This document shows positions 48,814 through 59,145 of a stretch of DNA of 64,000 nucleotides, in pieces. Source of the stretch: an uncultured archaeon (GTDB taxonomy: Archaea > Asgardarchaeota > Lokiarchaeia > Sigyniarchaeales > SOKP01); the NCBI GenBank assembly GCA_964525635.1, contig CAZGJX010000001.1, positions 62,344 to 126,343 of the forward strand, in the 5' to 3' direction. The notes beneath the pieces are model-generated. The model searched no databases. It saw only the letters and a program-made list of their open reading frames with translations, and was not told where the DNA came from. Position numbers and translations under genes: made by a program. Every line of letters begins with the position of its first letter. Within the stretch, counting starts at the first letter, position 1.

Positions 48814-49599
48814 TTATTTTTGATCAAGACCCAATTGTTCAATCATAGCTTTTTTCATTTCTTCTTTATCCCTTGGAAGCCCAAACAATTCTGCATATTT
48901 ATCTGTAGTTGATAATTCTGCGGATCTTCCTTTTTTCTCAGAAATAATAAACTCATTTTCCTCAAGATATTTAATATGATCATAAGCACCAGAACCTCTC
49001 ATTTTTATTACAGTTGATTTTAATATGGGTTGTTTTAAAGCAATAATCGTAAGAGTTCTAAGATATTTTTCAGCAATGGCCCCTCCTTTAGCAAATTGAG
49101 ATATTTTTTCAGAATATTCAGGTCTTATTTGCATTTGATATGTTTCTCCAATAGTAAGAATAGTAAGAGAGCTTGATCGATTGTTATAGAGTTCAAGAAG
49201 TTCATTTAGTAATTCTTCTATTTCTTTTTTTTTTATTTCTAATTTTGTTGAAAGTTCTTCAATAGTAAGACCTCTTCCAGCAGCAAATAAGGCGCCCTCA
49301 ATTAAGTTCCTATAAATATCTCTTATTTCTTCTTCAGGAATGTCATCAGGAATAATTTCTTGTTTAGTTTGAATTATATTAGAATCATCAATCTCTTCCT
49401 CTGAAATCTCTTCATCCTCTTCTTCATTAGAAAGCATAGTTTCAGAGATCTCTTCATCATTTTCTTTATCAGAAATATTAGATTCTAATATTTTTTCATC
49501 TTCACTCTGGTTTACAATCAGATTTTCTGAATCATTTTCATCAATATTATTCTTTTCTATCTCTATTTTATCATCAGATTCATTATTATTCAATTTCAA
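48814..49599 (-). CDS. scpB: ScpB (kite subunit) with acidic N-terminal extension
   Basis: LIEGALFAAG, LRTLTIIALKQPI...RG...HIKYL, TTDKYAELFGL. Confidence 0.93.
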   Translation of the reverse strand: MKLNNNESDDKIEIEKNNIDENDSENLIVNQSEDEKILESNISDKENDEEISETMLSNEEEDEEISEEEIDDSNIIQTKQEIIPDDIPEEEIRDIYRNLIEGALFAAGRGLTIEELSTKLEIKKKEIEELLNELLELYNNRSSSLTILTIGETYQMQIRPEYSEKISQFAKGGAIAEKYLRTLTIIALKQPILKSTVIKMRGSGAYDHIKYLEENEFIISEKKGRSAELSTTDKYAELFGLPRDKEEMKKAMIEQLGLDQK

Positions 49600-49628: not shown

Positions 49629-50630
49629 TTATCCTTTTAAGGCAATTATTATATCTTTAAAATCTTTATTTTGTTCAAGAGAGATTCTATTATTTGTACT
49701 TAAAAACATTAAAGCTAAAAACATTCTCACTAATTCATATTTTCTGCCTAAAACACTCTCTTCATTTACTTTGATAATTTTTATTAAGTCCAAGAAATTA
49801 GTATCTTCTTTATTTTCAAGTTTAATTATTGCTTTTATTTTTTTATGCCAACTATCAAGTAATTCTTCAATAGTTTGTTCCTTTCCAGTTATATGTTTTA
49901 GAATTTCCTTTGGAAGTTGAGCTGTTGCTGAAAGTTCCTTTCTTTTTCTGAGTTGTTCTTCTTTTCTTAATCTTTGTCTACGTAATTTTTCTTTTTTTTG
50001 CATTGTTTCAATTATTGCCGCTCTCATTGCCTCAAATAATTCATCCTTAGTTGTAATCTTTAATTTTGATTGAATTGGTTGAGAAAGCGTCTTAGGAATT
50101 CCCCTATGAGTCCTTTGTCTTAATTTCTCAATTTCTTCTTTTTTTTGAATTTCTTCTTCTTCTCTAATAATACTAGTGATTTTATGATGATGTAATGATG
50201 CAGAAGTCTTTAAAGCAATACCAGATACTTTATAATTTATAAAATTCTCGGTTAACATTTTATCAAAGAATTTATTTACCAGATTTGATAAATCATAAAA
50301 AGCCACCTCAGAATCTTTAGCTAACTCTAGATTAAGTAAGGTAGAGAAAGGTGGTTTTTGCCAGAATTTCAAATTTTTTTCTTCTTTCTTAAATAATGGA
50401 GCGACTTCATCCTCATCAAAATCAACAATAAGTTCTTCTTCAAAGTACTCTTCTTTTGTACTGTCAATAAATTCAGGATTAGAAACAACTTCTTCAAGTA
50501 ATTTGATAATATCATTTTTATTTGCACCTGATTTTAATGATATTTTATTTACAGCTGCAAATTCTCTTAATTTTTTAACTGTCCAATCTTTAAAATTATA
50601 TTCATCTTTTGAATTATCTTGTCCACTCAT
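49629..50630 (-). CDS. scpA: ScpA kleisin with extra N-terminal HEH-like domain
   Basis: Kleisin N-helix (INYKVSGIALKTSASL..K), C-terminal wHTH (VRMFLALMFL....ISLEQ...F.DI); directly upstream of scpB. Confidence 0.85.
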   Translation of the reverse strand: MSGQDNSKDEYNFKDWTVKKLREFAAVNKISLKSGANKNDIIKLLEEVVSNPEFIDSTKEEYFEEELIVDFDEDEVAPLFKKEEKNLKFWQKPPFSTLLNLELAKDSEVAFYDLSNLVNKFFDKMLTENFINYKVSGIALKTSASLHHHKITSIIREEEEIQKKEEIEKLRQRTHRGIPKTLSQPIQSKLKITTKDELFEAMRAAIIETMQKKEKLRRQRLRKEEQLRKRKELSATAQLPKEILKHITGKEQTIEELLDSWHKKIKAIIKLENKEDTNFLDLIKIIKVNEESVLGRKYELVRMFLALMFLSTNNRISLEQNKDFKDIIIALKG

Positions 50631-51023: not shown

Positions 51024-51566
51024 TTAATTTACACAAATTATATTAGAAATTATTGATTGAAAGACATCATCTATATTCTGACCTGTTTTCGATGAAGTTT
51101 CTATATAATCATACATATTGTTTCTTTCTATTATTTTTGGAATGAGGACATTCTTAACAACTGAACAATTATAAAGGTCACTTTTTGTGGCAACTAAAAG
51201 AATTGGTAACTCTTTATTTTCAGTTCTCAATAATTTTACCCACTTATCTAGTGAAATAAAACTACTATAATTCGTTATATCAAATAATAATAAAGCACCA
51301 TGGGCTCCTTTAATTGCGAAATCTACAATATAACGAAATCTATCTTGTCCACCTAAATCCCATAATTGCATTTTGCAAAAAATATTGGAATAAAATAATT
51401 CTTTACTATAATGATCAAGACCAATGGTCATTTTTGAACCTTTAATAAATTGACCTTCAATATATCGTTTTATAAGTGTGGTCTTTCCTACGCTAGCATT
51501 ACCTGCTATTATTATTTTCATATATTTTTCTTCTTGAGTTGGAGCTACTAACATATTTATTACCAA
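51024..51566 (-). CDS. Rab-like small GTPase
   Basis: GNASVGKTT, MTIG, WDLGGQDRF, ATKSD, ETSSK. Confidence 0.93.
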   Translation of the reverse strand: MVINMLVAPTQEEKYMKIIIAGNASVGKTTLIKRYIEGQFIKGSKMTIGLDHYSKELFYSNIFCKMQLWDLGGQDRFRYIVDFAIKGAHGALLLFDITNYSSFISLDKWVKLLRTENKELPILLVATKSDLYNCSVVKNVLIPKIIERNNMYDYIETSSKTGQNIDDVFQSIISNIICVN

Positions 51567-53347: not shown

Positions 53348-56300
53348 TTAACTTTCTTCTACCTTAACATCTTCTGGTTCTAATAGTCGTTTAGCTTCTT
53401 CTTCTAAATCAACACTAAACACATCTGTAATACCACTTTTTTGCATTGATACACCATAAATCCTTTCGGCATTAACGATGTTTTCTTCACGGTGACTAAT
53501 TATAATAAATTGTGCTTGGCTGGAAAACTCCTGAATGACTGTTGAGACTCTGTGGACATTTGGACCATCGAGAGCCGCATCAATCTCATCAAGAATATAA
53601 AAAGGGGCAGGATAAAATTCTTGTACAGCAAATATGAAAGAGAGGGCAACAAGAGTTTTCTCTCCTCCACTTAAAATTTCTAAGGAAGATATTTTTTTAC
53701 CTCTTGGTCTTGCTTCTATACTAATGCCTCCTTCAAAAGGTTTATCTGGTCTATCAAGGATCATTTTTGCTGATCCTCCAGGAGATAATTTTTGGAAAAT
53801 TCGAGAAAATTCTCTGTTTATTTCATGGTATGCTTTCATAAATGTTTGAGTTTTTTCTAGCTCTATTTTATCAATTGCATCGAGAATAGATTTTCTTTCT
53901 CTTTGTATTGTTTGTCTTCTCATATCAATCTCATCAAATCTTTCTTTTACGATATCATATTGTTTAATTGCTTTTAGATTGACTGGTTCTAGAGCTTCTC
54001 TCATTTTAGTCGCGTTTTTAATTTCAGATTCGAGGTTTACTTCGGTGATATCTTCAGTTATACGAGGTAATGATCCAAAATCCTTAGATCTCTGAAATAA
54101 TGTTTCTATTTGATCATTTGTAATTATCTTTTTTGATTCTAAATTGTTTAATTTAGATTTTTCCATGGAATAATCTGATTTTAGATCAGTGTATATTTTT
54201 TGATATTGCTTTTGTTTTTTCCAAGATTCATCTTTTCCTTCAACAAGTTTATCAATTTCTTTTTGTTTTTCGGCTTTTTCAGCTTTTACTTCTTCTAATT
54301 TATTTTTAACATTCTCAATCTTAACGTCTAGATCTTTAATTTGACTTTCAGTTTGTAAAATTTCTTGTGAAAGAGATTCTATTTTCTCTTCTCGCTCTTT
54401 ACTTTTATTTAGTTCATTTAGATTATTTTGTAATTTTTGGAACTCTTTATTTAGCCTATTTAAATTGTCTTGAGCTTTTTTCTGGTCATTAATTTCTTGA
54501 GTTTTATTTTTTCTTAGACTATTAATATTTTTTTGTTTATTATCAACTTCTTTTTGTATGTTTTCGACCTCTACTTTAATTTCCTCAATCTTCTTTTTAT
54601 TATCTTCAATTTTCTTTTCAGCATCTATATTTTCGTTTTTCAATTCCTCAATTGAATTGATTAATCTCATTATGTTCTCTAATGATCTTAATCGATCTAA
54701 GGTTTTTTCTAAAATTTTATTTTTTTCATCTATTTTTTCCTGTAATGATTTATTAATCTCCCAAAAATTATCTTTTTTTAGATTTAATTCTTCTATTTCG
54801 GTATCTTTTGTCTTACATTCTCTATTTTTATTTTTTAATTTTTCCTCAATTTCGATTATTAATATTTTTTTATCATCAATTGAATTGTTAAGTTCTTCAA
54901 TGTTTTGGTTTATATCTTCAATATTTTCGAATAAAGTTTCAATTCCTTTCAAATCTTGTAGATTTTTATCTAATTCAGAAACTTCTTTTTGTTTTTCTTC
55001 TGTTTTTTCTTGAATTTCAGATACAATTGACCAATGATCCTCCTTCAATTTCTTTAATTGTTCAATTTTTGTGTTTAATTCTTCTTCTTCCTTTCTTCTT
55101 TCCTGAATCGTACTATTTCTTTCCTCTTTTACTTTACTTGATTCTATATTTTTTTCATTTATTTCGGTGATTCTTTTTTTAATCTCTTCAAGTTTATTTT
55201 GTGAGGCAGTTCTATCCTTATTATTATGTATATTTTTAATCTGTAGTTCAGATATATTTATTCCAATCTCATTTACATCTTCGCCTTGATTTTGAATATT
55301 TTCAGCAATTTCTTCTACTTGTTTATATAGATCCTGAGATTTCGAAACTGTTAGTTTTCTGAGAGAAATATGGACATTTTCTAGGATTTCCATTAAATCT
55401 TGTACAAAGTGATCAAAATTTGAAGTAGAATCTTGAACAGCTACATCAACAGATTCTTTTATTCTATACACTAATTGTTCTATTGTTTGATCAGCATTAT
55501 CATTGAATAATGATAAAGTTTGAACAATTGAATCAAGAATAGTGGATACTTCTCCTTTCTTTGATTCTGATTTCACATCTTCTATAGTTTTCATCATTTC
55601 AATGATATCTAATATGAATGCTTTAAAATCTTCTGCTGACATATCAATTGCTTCTGCATTCGACTGTTGAATATTGCTTTTTATAGATTCTACAGAAATA
55701 TTTATATTTTGGGTCAACATATTTAAGATTTGAAGGATTCCATTGATATCTGATTTATCTTTTTCATATTCTTTTTCAGCATTGTCAATACGATCTTGAA
55801 TTCTTTTTTTCTCTGCATTTAATTCCTCAAGTCTGTGAATAATATTATCTTTTCTTTGATTTAAATTCTCAATATTCTTATCATTTTCTTCTATATTTTC
55901 ATTTAATTCTTCAACAAGTACTGTTAAGTTTCTATTTTCTCTTTCTAAATTAGTTAGTTCTCTTTGATATATTTTTTCTTTTGTTTGAATATTGCTTATT
56001 TTTGATTGGTTATCATTTATCTCCGATATAAGAGCATCATGTTTCATTTTTATTAATTCCAGTTTTTTTTCATTTCCTCTGAATTCGAAATTTTCATCTT
56101 TTAGTTTTTTCTTAAGTACTTCTAACTCTTGGTATAACTTTTTTCTATTTTCCAAAATTTTCTTAATAGCATTTTCATGTTTATCTCCCTTGCTAATATC
56201 TTCTATTTTCTGTTCAATTTTTTGTTTTTTATTCTCAAGGTTTTGTCTATTTTCATTGTTCATTTTTATTTCTGTATTAATAGATGATAAAGTAGACATT

Positions 56301-57793
56301 ATTTCAGATATATTTGAATTTATTTTGGTCTTTTCTTCTTGTTTAAGATTAATTAAATTCTCTAAATCCTTTCGATTTTTATTTTCTTCCGATATTTTAT
56401 TTTTTATAATTTCAATTTCCTTTCTGATTTTATTTTCTTCATCTTGGACTAGTTTAATTGCGTTTTCGATACTTTCAGCTTCCCCTTTTAAATTACTTAA
56501 TTCTTCTTCTAATTTTCCTTTTTTTAGAATATTTTTCTTTATATTTTCTTTAAGTCCATTAATGCTTGTTTCTTTTGATGATAATTGTTGTCTTAGTTTT
56601 GAAATATCTGCTATAAATTTTGCTTTTTCCTCTTCAATCTCGTTTATTTGATCATCTAATTTAACTTGACTTTGTTGTTTTAATTCAATTTCTTTCTTTG
56701 AATCTTCAATTTTACTTTCTATTTTTTCAATTTCATTTTTTAATTCATTGATTAAAGTATCCAAGTCTTGTCCTTCTTGTAATTCCGTTTGAAGGGTTTC
56801 TAATTTATTTTTTTCTTTTTTAAGTTTTTCTAACGATTTTTTAGCTAGGTCTGAAGTTGTTTGATTTGAGGATAATTCTGTTTTTAATACAATTATTTGT
56901 TCATTTATATCATCTCTTTCTTTCTCCCTCTGATTTATTGAGCTTTGAATATTATCCATGACTAATGATTCTTGTTTAAGTATTTCTTCCTGTCTATTTA
57001 TTTTTTCTTCAAATTCTTCGAGTAATTTTTGGGTTTCCTCAATATTCTTTTCAATTGCTTCCTCTTCTTTTTTTAATTTAGATATTTTTAACGCAATTAA
57101 TTTTACATTTAGGTCTTTAATTTTCTGGTCTATCTCTTTCCATGCTAAAGCATCATTTTTTTCTTTTTCAACTTTCTTGAGTTGAGAGGATACTTCTTTA
57201 AAAATTGCTTCAAATTGACCTAGATCCCGTTCAGCTTTTTCTAATTCTTTTATTGTTTCATTTTTCATTTCATCATATTTTTGAAGTCCAATTAGTTCCT
57301 CTATAAATTTTCGTCTTTCTTCAGTATTCATATGAGTTAATTCAACTATTTTACCTTGAAGGACAAATTGGTTACTCCCATCAGGATCAATATTAGCAGA
57401 AGCGAGTATATTTAGAATTTGTTGACGAGTGGCGGCCTTTCCATTCATTTTATATTTATTTCCTTTACCTTTTATGACTGTCCTCGATATTTCAAAGTCT
57501 TCAGTTCCTCCGGGAAAAATTCCATCTGAATTATCAAAATATAATGAAACTGAGGCTCTATTTGAAGGATTGTGTCCCCTTGAGCCCGCAAAAATAAGAT
57601 CCTCGAGTTTTTCTGCCCTCATTGTCTTTTTTGAGAGCCTTCCAAGAGCAAAACATAGAGCATCAATTATATTTGACTTACCTGCTCCATTTGGCCCAAC
57701 TACACATGTAAATCCTTGTGAAAGCTTTATGGTAACAGTACGATCTCCGAAGGATTTAAATCCTGTCATTGAAATTTTCTTAATATATGTCAA
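53348..57793 (-). CDS. smc: SMC chromosome segregation ATPase, 1481 aa, atypical hinge
   Basis: GFKSF, GPNGAGKSN, Q-loop VLQG, PVNLKAI.QY, LSGGEK, ILDEIDAALD, IISH; scpA and scpB nearby. Confidence 0.95.
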   Translation of the reverse strand: MTYIKKISMTGFKSFGDRTVTIKLSQGFTCVVGPNGAGKSNIIDALCFALGRLSKKTMRAEKLEDLIFAGSRGHNPSNRASVSLYFDNSDGIFPGGTEDFEISRTVIKGKGNKYKMNGKAATRQQILNILASANIDPDGSNQFVLQGKIVELTHMNTEERRKFIEELIGLQKYDEMKNETIKELEKAERDLGQFEAIFKEVSSQLKKVEKEKNDALAWKEIDQKIKDLNVKLIALKISKLKKEEEAIEKNIEETQKLLEEFEEKINRQEEILKQESLVMDNIQSSINQREKERDDINEQIIVLKTELSSNQTTSDLAKKSLEKLKKEKNKLETLQTELQEGQDLDTLINELKNEIEKIESKIEDSKKEIELKQQSQVKLDDQINEIEEEKAKFIADISKLRQQLSSKETSINGLKENIKKNILKKGKLEEELSNLKGEAESIENAIKLVQDEENKIRKEIEIIKNKISEENKNRKDLENLINLKQEEKTKINSNISEIMSTLSSINTEIKMNNENRQNLENKKQKIEQKIEDISKGDKHENAIKKILENRKKLYQELEVLKKKLKDENFEFRGNEKKLELIKMKHDALISEINDNQSKISNIQTKEKIYQRELTNLERENRNLTVLVEELNENIEENDKNIENLNQRKDNIIHRLEELNAEKKRIQDRIDNAEKEYEKDKSDINGILQILNMLTQNINISVESIKSNIQQSNAEAIDMSAEDFKAFILDIIEMMKTIEDVKSESKKGEVSTILDSIVQTLSLFNDNADQTIEQLVYRIKESVDVAVQDSTSNFDHFVQDLMEILENVHISLRKLTVSKSQDLYKQVEEIAENIQNQGEDVNEIGINISELQIKNIHNNKDRTASQNKLEEIKKRITEINEKNIESSKVKEERNSTIQERRKEEEELNTKIEQLKKLKEDHWSIVSEIQEKTEEKQKEVSELDKNLQDLKGIETLFENIEDINQNIEELNNSIDDKKILIIEIEEKLKNKNRECKTKDTEIEELNLKKDNFWEINKSLQEKIDEKNKILEKTLDRLRSLENIMRLINSIEELKNENIDAEKKIEDNKKKIEEIKVEVENIQKEVDNKQKNINSLRKNKTQEINDQKKAQDNLNRLNKEFQKLQNNLNELNKSKEREEKIESLSQEILQTESQIKDLDVKIENVKNKLEEVKAEKAEKQKEIDKLVEGKDESWKKQKQYQKIYTDLKSDYSMEKSKLNNLESKKIITNDQIETLFQRSKDFGSLPRITEDITEVNLESEIKNATKMREALEPVNLKAIKQYDIVKERFDEIDMRRQTIQRERKSILDAIDKIELEKTQTFMKAYHEINREFSRIFQKLSPGGSAKMILDRPDKPFEGGISIEARPRGKKISSLEILSGGEKTLVALSFIFAVQEFYPAPFYILDEIDAALDGPNVHRVSTVIQEFSSQAQFIIISHREENIVNAERIYGVSMQKSGITDVFSVDLEEEAKRLLEPEDVKVEES

Positions 57794-57930: not shown

Positions 57931-59145
57931 TTAATTATATTGGTTAAGAATTTGATTTTTTTCAAATATAGCATCAATCATGGCTTTTAATTTCAATGGA
58001 CTTATTGTTATAAAATAAAATTCATCTAATATATTAGTTTTATTAAAGTTTTTTATATTTTGAGATAATAATTTTTTAGAAGAATTAATTAGTCCAATGT
58101 TTTTAGCATTTGATATTAAATGATTAAATTCTTCGAGATTTTTATTATATTCAAGTGTTTCACATGAAATTAAATAAAGTTCCTTTATATTTCTTAACGA
58201 AATATAAAAAATTGAGGGATGGTTAACAAAATAATTAGAAAGGTTATCTAAAAAAATCACATTTAATAAATCCTCTTCAGATAGATATGTAAGAATATTA
58301 AATTCATCAAGGGTAAGAAATGATTCAAAGTGATTTTCACAGATTTCTAACATGTGGTGATAATTTACTGAATCACTCTTTTGGAGATAAGGATAAAGAT
58401 CTCTTAATATGTCAATTCCTTTTCCAGGAATTGGGATATAATTGTCGAAAATTAAATCCGTCATGAATTCAATCAATTCTATATCAATTTCATGAGAAAA
58501 TGTTAGAGAGATTCTCTGTTTAAAAATGTAAAAAAGCTGGTTATAAGTAAAATAATTCAATTTTCTTTTATAATCATAATGAGATAAAATATCTATTGTG
58601 GAGGATTTTAAGACATTATTTATAGTTGATATAATAGTAATTTTTAATTCTTTACCAAAAGAGAGTAATTTTTTCAGGATTTTAGGTTCTAAATATTCAG
58701 TATTTTTGAGAACTATCACAATATTACTATTTAATCTTTTAGTAGCTAACTTTAAAATACTCCAAAGCTGGTAGATTTTTAAATTAACAATTGTATTGAT
58801 ATCTAATTTAAAATTTAAAAGTTTTAATAATATAGATAAAATGGACATTATTATCTCTTCAAGAGTTTTTTCTTTACAATCAACATCAATTTTTTTGAAA
58901 TCTTTAATATATTTATTTTGTTCGACCAAATCCTTTAAAACTTTATTAATTATTACTTTTTTTCCAATTCCTTCAATACCCTGATATAATATATTCATAG
59001 AAAAATCATCCGATATGCTATCTTTTAAAATAGAAAAAAGAGAATTTTCTTCCTTTTTTCTATACAAAATTACAGGTGGTATATATAATGGATCGAAGAG
59101 AGCCTTAGGACCAACAAAATCTATATTCTTTCCTGTTAAATTCAT
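57931..59145 (-). CDS. Cdc6/Orc1-like AAA+ protein with degenerate ATPase motifs
   Basis: LFDPLYIPPVILYRKKE, GIEGIGKK, IDVDC, Walker B position VIVLKNTE, FTYNQLFYIFKQR, C-terminal wHTH. Confidence 0.78.
   Translation of the reverse strand: MNLTGKNIDFVGPKALFDPLYIPPVILYRKKEENSLFSILKDSISDDFSMNILYQGIEGIGKKVIINKVLKDLVEQNKYIKDFKKIDVDCKEKTLEEIIMSILSILLKLLNFKLDINTIVNLKIYQLWSILKLATKRLNSNIVIVLKNTEYLEPKILKKLLSFGKELKITIISTINNVLKSSTIDILSHYDYKRKLNYFTYNQLFYIFKQRISLTFSHEIDIELIEFMTDLIFDNYIPIPGKGIDILRDLYPYLQKSDSVNYHHMLEICENHFESFLTLDEFNILTYLSEEDLLNVIFLDNLSNYFVNHPSIFYISLRNIKELYLISCETLEYNKNLEEFNHLISNAKNIGLINSSKKLLSQNIKNFNKTNILDEFYFITISPLKLKAMIDAIFEKNQILNQYN

Follow-up and report, generated by a model that had tools for sequence, protein, structure and literature searches.

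What takes the place of the hinge in an SMC protein (structural maintenance of chromosomes) that lacks one, and can two such proteins still be joined? This question is raised by a gene on contig CAZGJX010000001.1 (assembly GCA_964525635.1, positions 62,344 to 126,343) of an uncultured archaeon of the Lokiarchaeia; the whole 64,000-nucleotide stretch that was analysed is called the window. The gene encodes an SMC protein of 1481 amino acids (aa), and an earlier note made from the letters alone had claimed that its midpoint (window 55340-55760, minus strand; residues about 679-818) bears no hinge and that a different dimerisation module has replaced it. The hinge is present in Smc, cohesin, condensin and Smc5/6 and reduced in MukB, and it is debated whether it serves arm dimerisation alone or is a DNA-binding site or gate as well; 'The SMC hinge is a selective gate for obstacle bypass' (PMC12647877) is reportedly one example from this debate. 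Here we report that the globular hinge is replaced by a conserved all-helical hairpin module, termed the apex. With a probability of roughly 55%, the best overall explanation is a hinge-less SMC that dimerises via a bundle of two apices and works together with ScpA and ScpB.

The absence of the hinge was established in several ways. In a Pfam search at E≤10, the protein matched neither SMC_hinge (PF06470) nor the MukB hinge, and only SMC_N and AAA head families were hit; three orthologues likewise gave no hinge match, and PF06470 was found in 0 of the 120 homologues listed with precomputed domains. The search was sensitive enough, since the same PF06470 hidden Markov model (HMM) detects the hinge of a divergent paralogue in the same genome (31-36 bits). 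Reading of the translation revealed no Gly-rich hinge motif at the midpoint and only three Gly in residues 683-840. Residues 640-880 contain no Cys and hence no CxxC zinc hook. The AlphaFold2 model, which covers residues 600-920 of the protein (41-sequence alignment, mean predicted local distance difference test (pLDDT) 86), consists of one helix at 601-741, a loop at 742-748 and a second helix at 748-919, with no strands. The earlier note had described the midpoint as almost free of Gly and devoid of both hinge and Rad50 hook, and had expected the SMC_hinge HMM to find nothing; all of this held, and the motifs it quoted were located in the translation. The apex-type SMC is no product of chance or assembly error, because the apex profile retrieved full-length orthologues (1473-1487 aa) from 133 genomes out of the phylum's 400. 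The parts of the gene are as follows.

53348..57793, minus strand: smc gene for the apex-type (hinge-less) SMC, 1481 aa, TTG start (open reading frame (ORF) and translation; SMC_N, TIGR02168 and TIGR02169 scores)
57284..57793, minus strand: N-terminal head half, residues 1-170 (Walker A GPNGAGKS and Q-loop read; TIGR02169; low column entropy)
55748..57283, minus strand: N-arm strand, residues 171-682, about 512 aa (coiled-coil composition; internal repeat at lag about 195)
55583..55747, minus strand: apex repeat R1, residues 683-737, ascending helix (hhalign of R1 and R2; conserved block; composition)
55538..55582, minus strand: tip loop, residues 738-752, hairpin turn (AlphaFold2 loop; alignment gaps; Asp/Glu content)
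55373..55537, minus strand: apex repeat R2, residues 753-807, helix running back down antiparallel to R1 (AlphaFold2, hhalign, composition)
55274..55372, minus strand: conserved helix after R2, residues 808-840, with the invariant SLRKLT.SKSQ block (conservation)
53894..55273, minus strand: C-arm strand, residues 841-1300, internal repeats at lags 90 and 180 (autocorrelation, hhalign)
53348..53893, minus strand: C-terminal head half and stop codon, residues 1301-1481 (LSGGEK, FYILDEID and H-loop read; TIGR02169)

The apex is as strongly conserved as the heads. Column entropy over 106 full-length orthologues was 0.23 bits at residues 691-720 and 0.47-0.62 bits at 781-840, compared to 1.0-1.8 bits in the arms and 0.06-0.7 in the N-terminal head half. 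Within the block 685-720, conservation reaches at least 90% at 29 of 36 positions, on every face of the helix, in sequences that are only about 50-55% identical over residues 600-920. The tip loop is the sole gapped stretch of the apex alignment, variable and prone to insertions and deletions, with a pLDDT of about 54 at 742-748 and an Asp/Glu fraction of 39%. Alignment of R1 (683-737) with R2 (753-807) by hhalign gave a probability of 95% and an E-value of 3.5e-8 over 55 ungapped columns. By this sequence comparison the apex is a tandem duplication of a helix of ~55 aa, and in the model R1 and R2 pair antiparallel in the hairpin, so that they would form a pseudo-two-fold unit. Composition also sets the apex apart: large hydrophobic residues account for 38-41% (peak 49%; R1 41%) vs 27% (standard deviation (sd) 4.6) in 28-aa windows of the arms, and the charged fraction drops to 7% vs 40% (sd 7) in the arms. 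With Lys plus Arg at 7% and a net charge of about -17, the acidic apex surface appears a poor candidate for DNA binding.

No known family could be assigned to the apex. Its HMM found no family among the PDB sequences (best E 0.96), and Pfam on the isolated apex gave sub-threshold matches to amphipathic-helix families only. Foldseek against the PDB and a wide search with VIA-align, both using the apex model, retrieved generic long hairpins only, such as chemoreceptors, PrgA and pieces of SMC, MukB and Rad50 arms. The best structural neighbour of the 600-920 model was the chemoreceptor 2ch7 (Z 14.3, root mean square deviation 9.1 Å, 295 aligned residues, Foldseek E 1e-3); Z values such as those of the structural matches would be obtained with any long helical hairpin. 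The Foldseek comparison proposed by the earlier note thus turned up no canonical hinge fold, and no specific fold can be assigned from it. A homodimer prediction with two copies of residues 600-920 and the alignment scored 0.00; it was run without controls and weighs neither way. Judged from sequence, the apex is an evolutionary unit of its own: duplicated, familyless and also present in non-SMC proteins.

This last point emerged from a search with the apex profile, which matched just 36 out of 1.84 billion cluster representatives. The scan covered the longer representatives; these consisted of Lokiarchaeia-type SMCs and of one further family of 920-1180 aa that carries the apex module twice, at about 70-236 and about 330-480. 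Neither an SMC head nor a significant Pfam domain is present in this two-module family; after the modules follow a beta-rich region without Pfam match and a Lys-rich, H1/HC2-like tail. Its members are P0140, P0142, P0143, P0146, P0148 and P0149 (e.g., G138:C1:4603092-4603598 and G143:C1:981107-981355). It was seen in family f3 of the order only, being absent from the window genome and most of family f1. AlphaFold2 predicted the N-terminal 520 aa to be all-helical (pLDDT 82.6), with long helices and turns at the module midpoints, and Foldseek with this 520-aa model found generic bundles only. These two-module, Lys-tailed proteins are possibly chromatin proteins that have the SMC apex in common or bind to it.

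The heads and arms that flank the apex are those of an SMC protein. All ATPase motifs are intact in the translation (Walker A GPNGAGKS, Q-loop, signature LSGGEK, Walker B FYILDEID, H-loop), and the split ABC-type ATPase head includes a D-loop. SMC_N (PF02463) scored 148 bits in Pfam and TIGR02168 581 bits, which exceeds its cut-off of 567, and the heads are thus Smc-type, as the earlier note had read them. TIGR02169 scored 634 bits, under the archaeal equivalog cut-off of 729.4, a shortfall that fits the missing hinge; the two head halves account for 299 bits (model positions 1-505) and 302 bits (835-1165). On the evidence of these motifs the 1481-aa SMC should be regarded as ATPase-competent.

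Each arm strand comprises about 500 aa (N strand about 171-682, C strand about 808-1300, estimated boundaries) and is ~170 aa longer than usual; Bacillus subtilis Smc has 344 aa per arm strand (PMC5344682). The N arm, with 26% large hydrophobic and 41% charged residues, has a composition as expected of a two-strand coiled coil. Its autocorrelation peaks at lag 195 (z 4.1), and hhalign aligned residues 281-369 with 476-564 (80%, E 1.4e-5). The C arm has autocorrelation maxima at lag 90 (z 4.1) and lag 180 (z 3.4), and its residues 900-1030 aligned with 1080-1210 (85%, E 6e-6). Most of the ~170 aa by which each strand is extended would stem from these repeats, which are located in window 54220-56770 (minus strand). 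A long intramolecular antiparallel coiled-coil arm is indicated by the AlphaFold2 hairpin of residues 600-920, the arm composition and the ungapped family alignment.

Downstream of smc and on the same strand lie the genes of two putative partners, a kleisin and a kite protein, in agreement with the scpA/scpB neighbourhood described in the earlier note.

49629..50630, minus strand: kleisin (ScpA-like), 333 aa (sub-threshold SMC_ScpA match of 22.6 bits and Rad21/Rec8 C-terminal matches; orthologue synteny)
48814..49599, minus strand: ScpB (kite), 261 aa (PF04079, 116 bits)

In four relatives (G135, G138, G143, G149) the genes for apex-type SMC, kleisin and ScpB are contiguous and in the same order, and no neighbour genes besides scpA and scpB are conserved beside smc. 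In the window, smc and scpA are separated by the gene of a Ras-family small GTPase (51024-51566, minus strand; 135 bits with Pfam Ras) and by small ORFs. Scanning for promoters and terminators yielded no useful signal in this AT-rich archaeal DNA. The first ~56 residues of the kleisin (window 50463-50630, minus strand) are not covered by the orthologues in other genomes, and a 40%-identical copy of them occurs elsewhere in the genome (G000:C9:39430-39579). Directly upstream of smc, a 404-aa ORF (window 57931-59145, minus strand) has a weak Orc1/Cdc6-family match (TIGR02928, 32 bits vs a cut-off of 181); its sequence suggests a diverged initiator-like AAA+ protein beside the condensin operon.

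The earlier note had looked to a distribution across Asgard SMCs; instead, the apex type is confined to a single order. In the apex profile search of the 400 genomes of the phylum, all but two of the 133 genomes with an apex belong to the order of the window, with matches in 113 of 134 genomes of family f1, the single genome of f2 (1/1), all 14 genomes of f3 (14/14) and two of four genomes of f4. The sources of the homologues are labelled Lokiarchaeota, Promethearchaeota or Promethearchaeia. Matches outside the order occur only in G039 (contigs C234, C256 and C278) and G063 (contig C70); these are short contigs near-identical to sequences from within the order, and they are probably mis-binned rather than transferred.

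Scanning of 189 genomes with a completeness of at least 90% for SMC_hinge showed that the SMCs of the order fall into three kinds: an apex type of about 1480 aa, a canonical hinge type of about 1196-1207 aa (hinge E 1e-30 to 1e-35), and a divergent weak-hinge type of about 1150 aa. All three occur together in family f3, including three closed genomes (4.36, 6.04 and 4.32 Mb), and also in genera g2 and g9 of f1 and at least one g10 genome. The genus of the window and genera g4, g5, g11, g12 and g13 have the apex type and the weak-hinge type only. The window genome is 100% complete by markers, and its sole SMC_hinge match is an SMC5/6-like paralogue on contig C37 (L010:1580-5047, minus strand; 1155 aa; weak hinge of 31 bits; Smc models 222-225 bits). 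This second SMC is flanked by ORFs of 418 aa, 216 aa (weak OapB-like match) and 180 aa, which are candidates for its kleisin and kites. Remnants of a hinge-type Smc were not detected in the window genome, where tblastn with a hinge-type Smc of the same family hit only the heads of the window gene and, weakly, the C37 gene; a second ScpB was not found in this genome either. The apex-type complex would accordingly be its only condensin-type complex, the hinge-bearing sister having apparently been lost.

Where the hinge-type Smc is kept, a short ScpB of its own with 196-197 aa follows it (63-70 bits; L065:8803-9393, plus strand; L066:5373-5966, minus strand), and Pfam recognised no kleisin beside it. 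Genus g6 of the same family has stand-alone SMC hinge ORFs, one of 247 aa in G161 (L063:3524-4264, minus strand) and one of 238 aa in G162 (L064:3419-4132, minus strand). They score 88.8 bits with PF06470 and match only residues 453-676 of a hinge-type Smc at 36% identity; they have unrelated neighbours, and no head-coding DNA was present near them. The apex-type SMC, too, is encoded in both genomes. The stand-alone ORFs may be remnants of a lost hinge-type gene or free hinge proteins.

A maximum likelihood tree was calculated from the concatenated head halves of Asgard SMCs (45 rows, 399 columns), non-Asgard and eukaryotic SMCs being left out. The weak-hinge (SMC5/6-like) clade was set apart with 100% support, and its divergent members have ~1120-1170 aa. 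The window protein belongs to the canonical Asgard Smc group and not to the SMC5/6-related archaeal SMCs; within this group, the apex clade (100%) and the hinge clade of the same order (100%) formed a polytomy with respect to their mutual order. Constraining these two as one clade gave a log-likelihood 14.5 above that of a quick free search and a p-value of 0.81 in the approximately unbiased test. Because this test does not reject the sister relation, an origin of the apex and hinge types by duplication at the base of the order is compatible with the data. The earlier reading as a plain Smc with a swapped hinge therefore needs to be extended: the hinge is indeed swapped, and the protein appears as one of two condensin-type paralogues of the order, the hinge-bearing sister having been lost here.

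On this basis the following course is proposed. The protein would have originated from a canonical archaeal Smc, most simply via the duplication at the base of its Lokiarchaeia order. The hinge would have been swapped for a new all-helical module of two homologous helices of ~55 aa, placed antiparallel at the tip of the arm hairpin, and the arm strands would have grown by about 170 residues through internal duplications to about 510 aa each, corresponding to an estimated 75 nm vs about 50 nm. Later, the hinge-bearing sister gene would have been lost in most genera, that of the window included. In the complex, the conserved, hydrophobic and charge-poor zone below the tip (685-720 with about 770-830) would pack on the same zone of a second SMC, and two hairpins side by side would give a four-helix bundle, as in the cytoplasmic dimers of chemoreceptors or in the Rad50 hook region when it is in its rod form. 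The bundle would supply constitutive dimerisation like a hinge, so that SMC2-ScpA-ScpB2 could still close a ring, and DNA contacts would be expected at heads, kleisin and kite and, because the apex is acidic, away from it.

Pairing of the apex with a second SMC is suggested by its ~40% large hydrophobics and its conservation on all faces, which call for more burial than two helices give. The side-by-side arrangement and the ring are proposed because kleisin and kite are retained. That a dimeriser other than the hinge can suffice follows from B. subtilis Smc, which is functional and allows normal growth with a Rad50 zinc hook in place of its hinge (PMC5344682). Of the replacement put forward in the earlier note, a distinct helical module in place of the hinge is supported; the dimerising role, the bundle geometry and the ring closure we infer from composition and conservation. 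The wider statement that a hinge-free SMC-kleisin-kite motor, with a four-helix-bundle dimeriser shared with a Lys-tailed putative chromatin family, displaced the hinge-bearing Smc in most of an Asgard order is in our view an even bet.

Several points weigh against pairing of the apices. The model of the monomer is a plain hairpin and could in principle represent a monomeric state; the conserved surface could bind another partner instead; and the boundaries of arms and apex are estimates from composition and alignment, made without a full-length model. Moreover, AlphaFold2 packs the apex module of the two-module family against further helices of the same chain, and for this reason the exposed face of the apex may be made for a third helix and not for a second hairpin. 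In a rival explanation the apex is a docking platform on a monomeric hairpin: the SMCs would pair only through ATP-engaged heads and kleisin, and the apex would recruit a further factor, for instance a loader, a cytoskeletal anchor or a chromatin protein. Conservation on all helix faces fits any tight interface, and a non-SMC family that has the module twice, predicted to pack with an extra helix, and ends in a Lys-rich H1/HC2-like tail could pair with the SMC apex. This family is found only in f3, yet the apex is equally conserved in the window genome and in f1; the operon encodes no conserved candidate partner apart from scpA and scpB, and their retention favours a ring that needs a second closed interface. 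We consider a docking role unlikely, if worth keeping in view. Retention of the kleisin, which normally bridges both heads of one dimer, also speaks against an antiparallel dimer joined tip to tip like RecN, in which a rod of ~150 nm with heads at opposite ends would tether or bridge DNA and not form a ring. The homologous, antiparallel repeats R1 and R2 provide a pseudo-two-fold axis, and packing in both directions is sterically plausible; however, conservation is highest 25-60 residues below the tip, and the tip itself is variable, which leaves such a rod quite doubtful.

The amphipathic character of the apex might alternatively tie the SMC to a membrane or lipid surface, as hinted by apolipoprotein (E 0.0016, 18.7 bits vs a cut-off of 90) and phasin among the sub-threshold Pfam matches and by the structural similarity to hairpins of PspA and ESCRT-III (Z 9-12). 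These scores are far under the cut-offs and in the range of any long helical hairpin, polar positions are conserved too, and lipid binding is without precedent among SMC proteins, so that we regard it as very improbable. Hardly any credence can be given to a cryptic, highly diverged hinge, which has only the midpoint position in its favour and is contradicted by the strandless model, the missing Gly-rich motif, the lack of any PF06470 or MukB hinge match at E≤10 and the fact that the same HMM finds the hinge of the divergent paralogue (31-36 bits). The reading as an apex-paired SMC with ScpA and ScpB is preferred.

Compared with known systems, the apex-type SMC resembles canonical Smc-ScpAB of B. 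subtilis and Pyrococcus in its head sequence, ATPase motifs, antiparallel arms, the kleisin and kite in one operon and its placement in the tree. Unlike these, it has a duplicated helical hairpin for a hinge, arms of about 510 vs about 340 aa per strand, a TIGR02169 score under the cut-off and, in some relatives, a hinge-bearing paralogue. Rad50/SbcC shares SMC-like heads, a long hairpin arm and an apex that is a simple turn without globular domain, but the window protein has no Cys in residues 640-880 and is partnered by kleisin and kite, not Mre11; identity with Rad50/SbcC was rejected, the NCBIfam Rad50 models scoring 85-107 bits vs cut-offs of 700-1087 and CxxC being absent. RecN is likewise an SMC-like protein without hinge, and Deinococcus RecN dimerises through its coiled-coil tip; RecN proteins have about 550 aa, short coils and no kleisin. 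The window protein is no RecN, given a TIGR00634 score of 38 bits vs a cut-off of 408 and its 1481 aa. MukB, MksB and JetC are similar in their length of about 1480 aa, in a hinge that is reduced relative to Smc and in having kleisin and kite partners. MukB was also rejected: neither a MukB-type hinge nor any MukB family was among the Pfam and NCBIfam matches, the heads are Smc-type, and ScpA and ScpB stand in the place of MukF and MukE. The chemoreceptor hairpin (2ch7), a long antiparallel hairpin dimerising as a four-helix bundle, offers an analogy for apex pairing but no sequence relation. 'Hinge-less' SMC variants with SMC-type heads, a coiled coil and neither hinge nor CxxC have been reported only in marine Actinobacteria (PMC12153180); they form a bacterial environmental clade unrelated to the Lokiarchaeia apex.

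In the literature on archaeal and Asgard SMC evolution, canonical and SMC5/6-related types are recognised and a further duplication is hinted at in some Asgard archaea; we found no description of a hinge-less form there, which does not prove that it is unpublished. Newly described here are the paralogues and how the hinge-type complex was lost among them, the family outside the SMCs that has two modules, the statistics on composition and the stand-alone hinge ORFs in one genus, together with the conserved order of smc, scpA and scpB and the arms lengthened by repeats.

For the biology of the SMC family, the order represents a natural hinge-replacement experiment in a lineage near the archaeal ancestor of eukaryotes and thereby a test of what the hinge is for, and genomes with and without the hinge-bearing sister beside the hinge-less form are matched natural controls. 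It raises the questions of what a complex does that lacks a hinge and whose arms are 1.5 times as long, whether an acidic helical apex is compatible with DNA entrapment or loop extrusion, and how arm length and apex changed together. The apex itself is a compact, unclassified helical domain that would be a useful dimerisation unit if it indeed dimerises as proposed.

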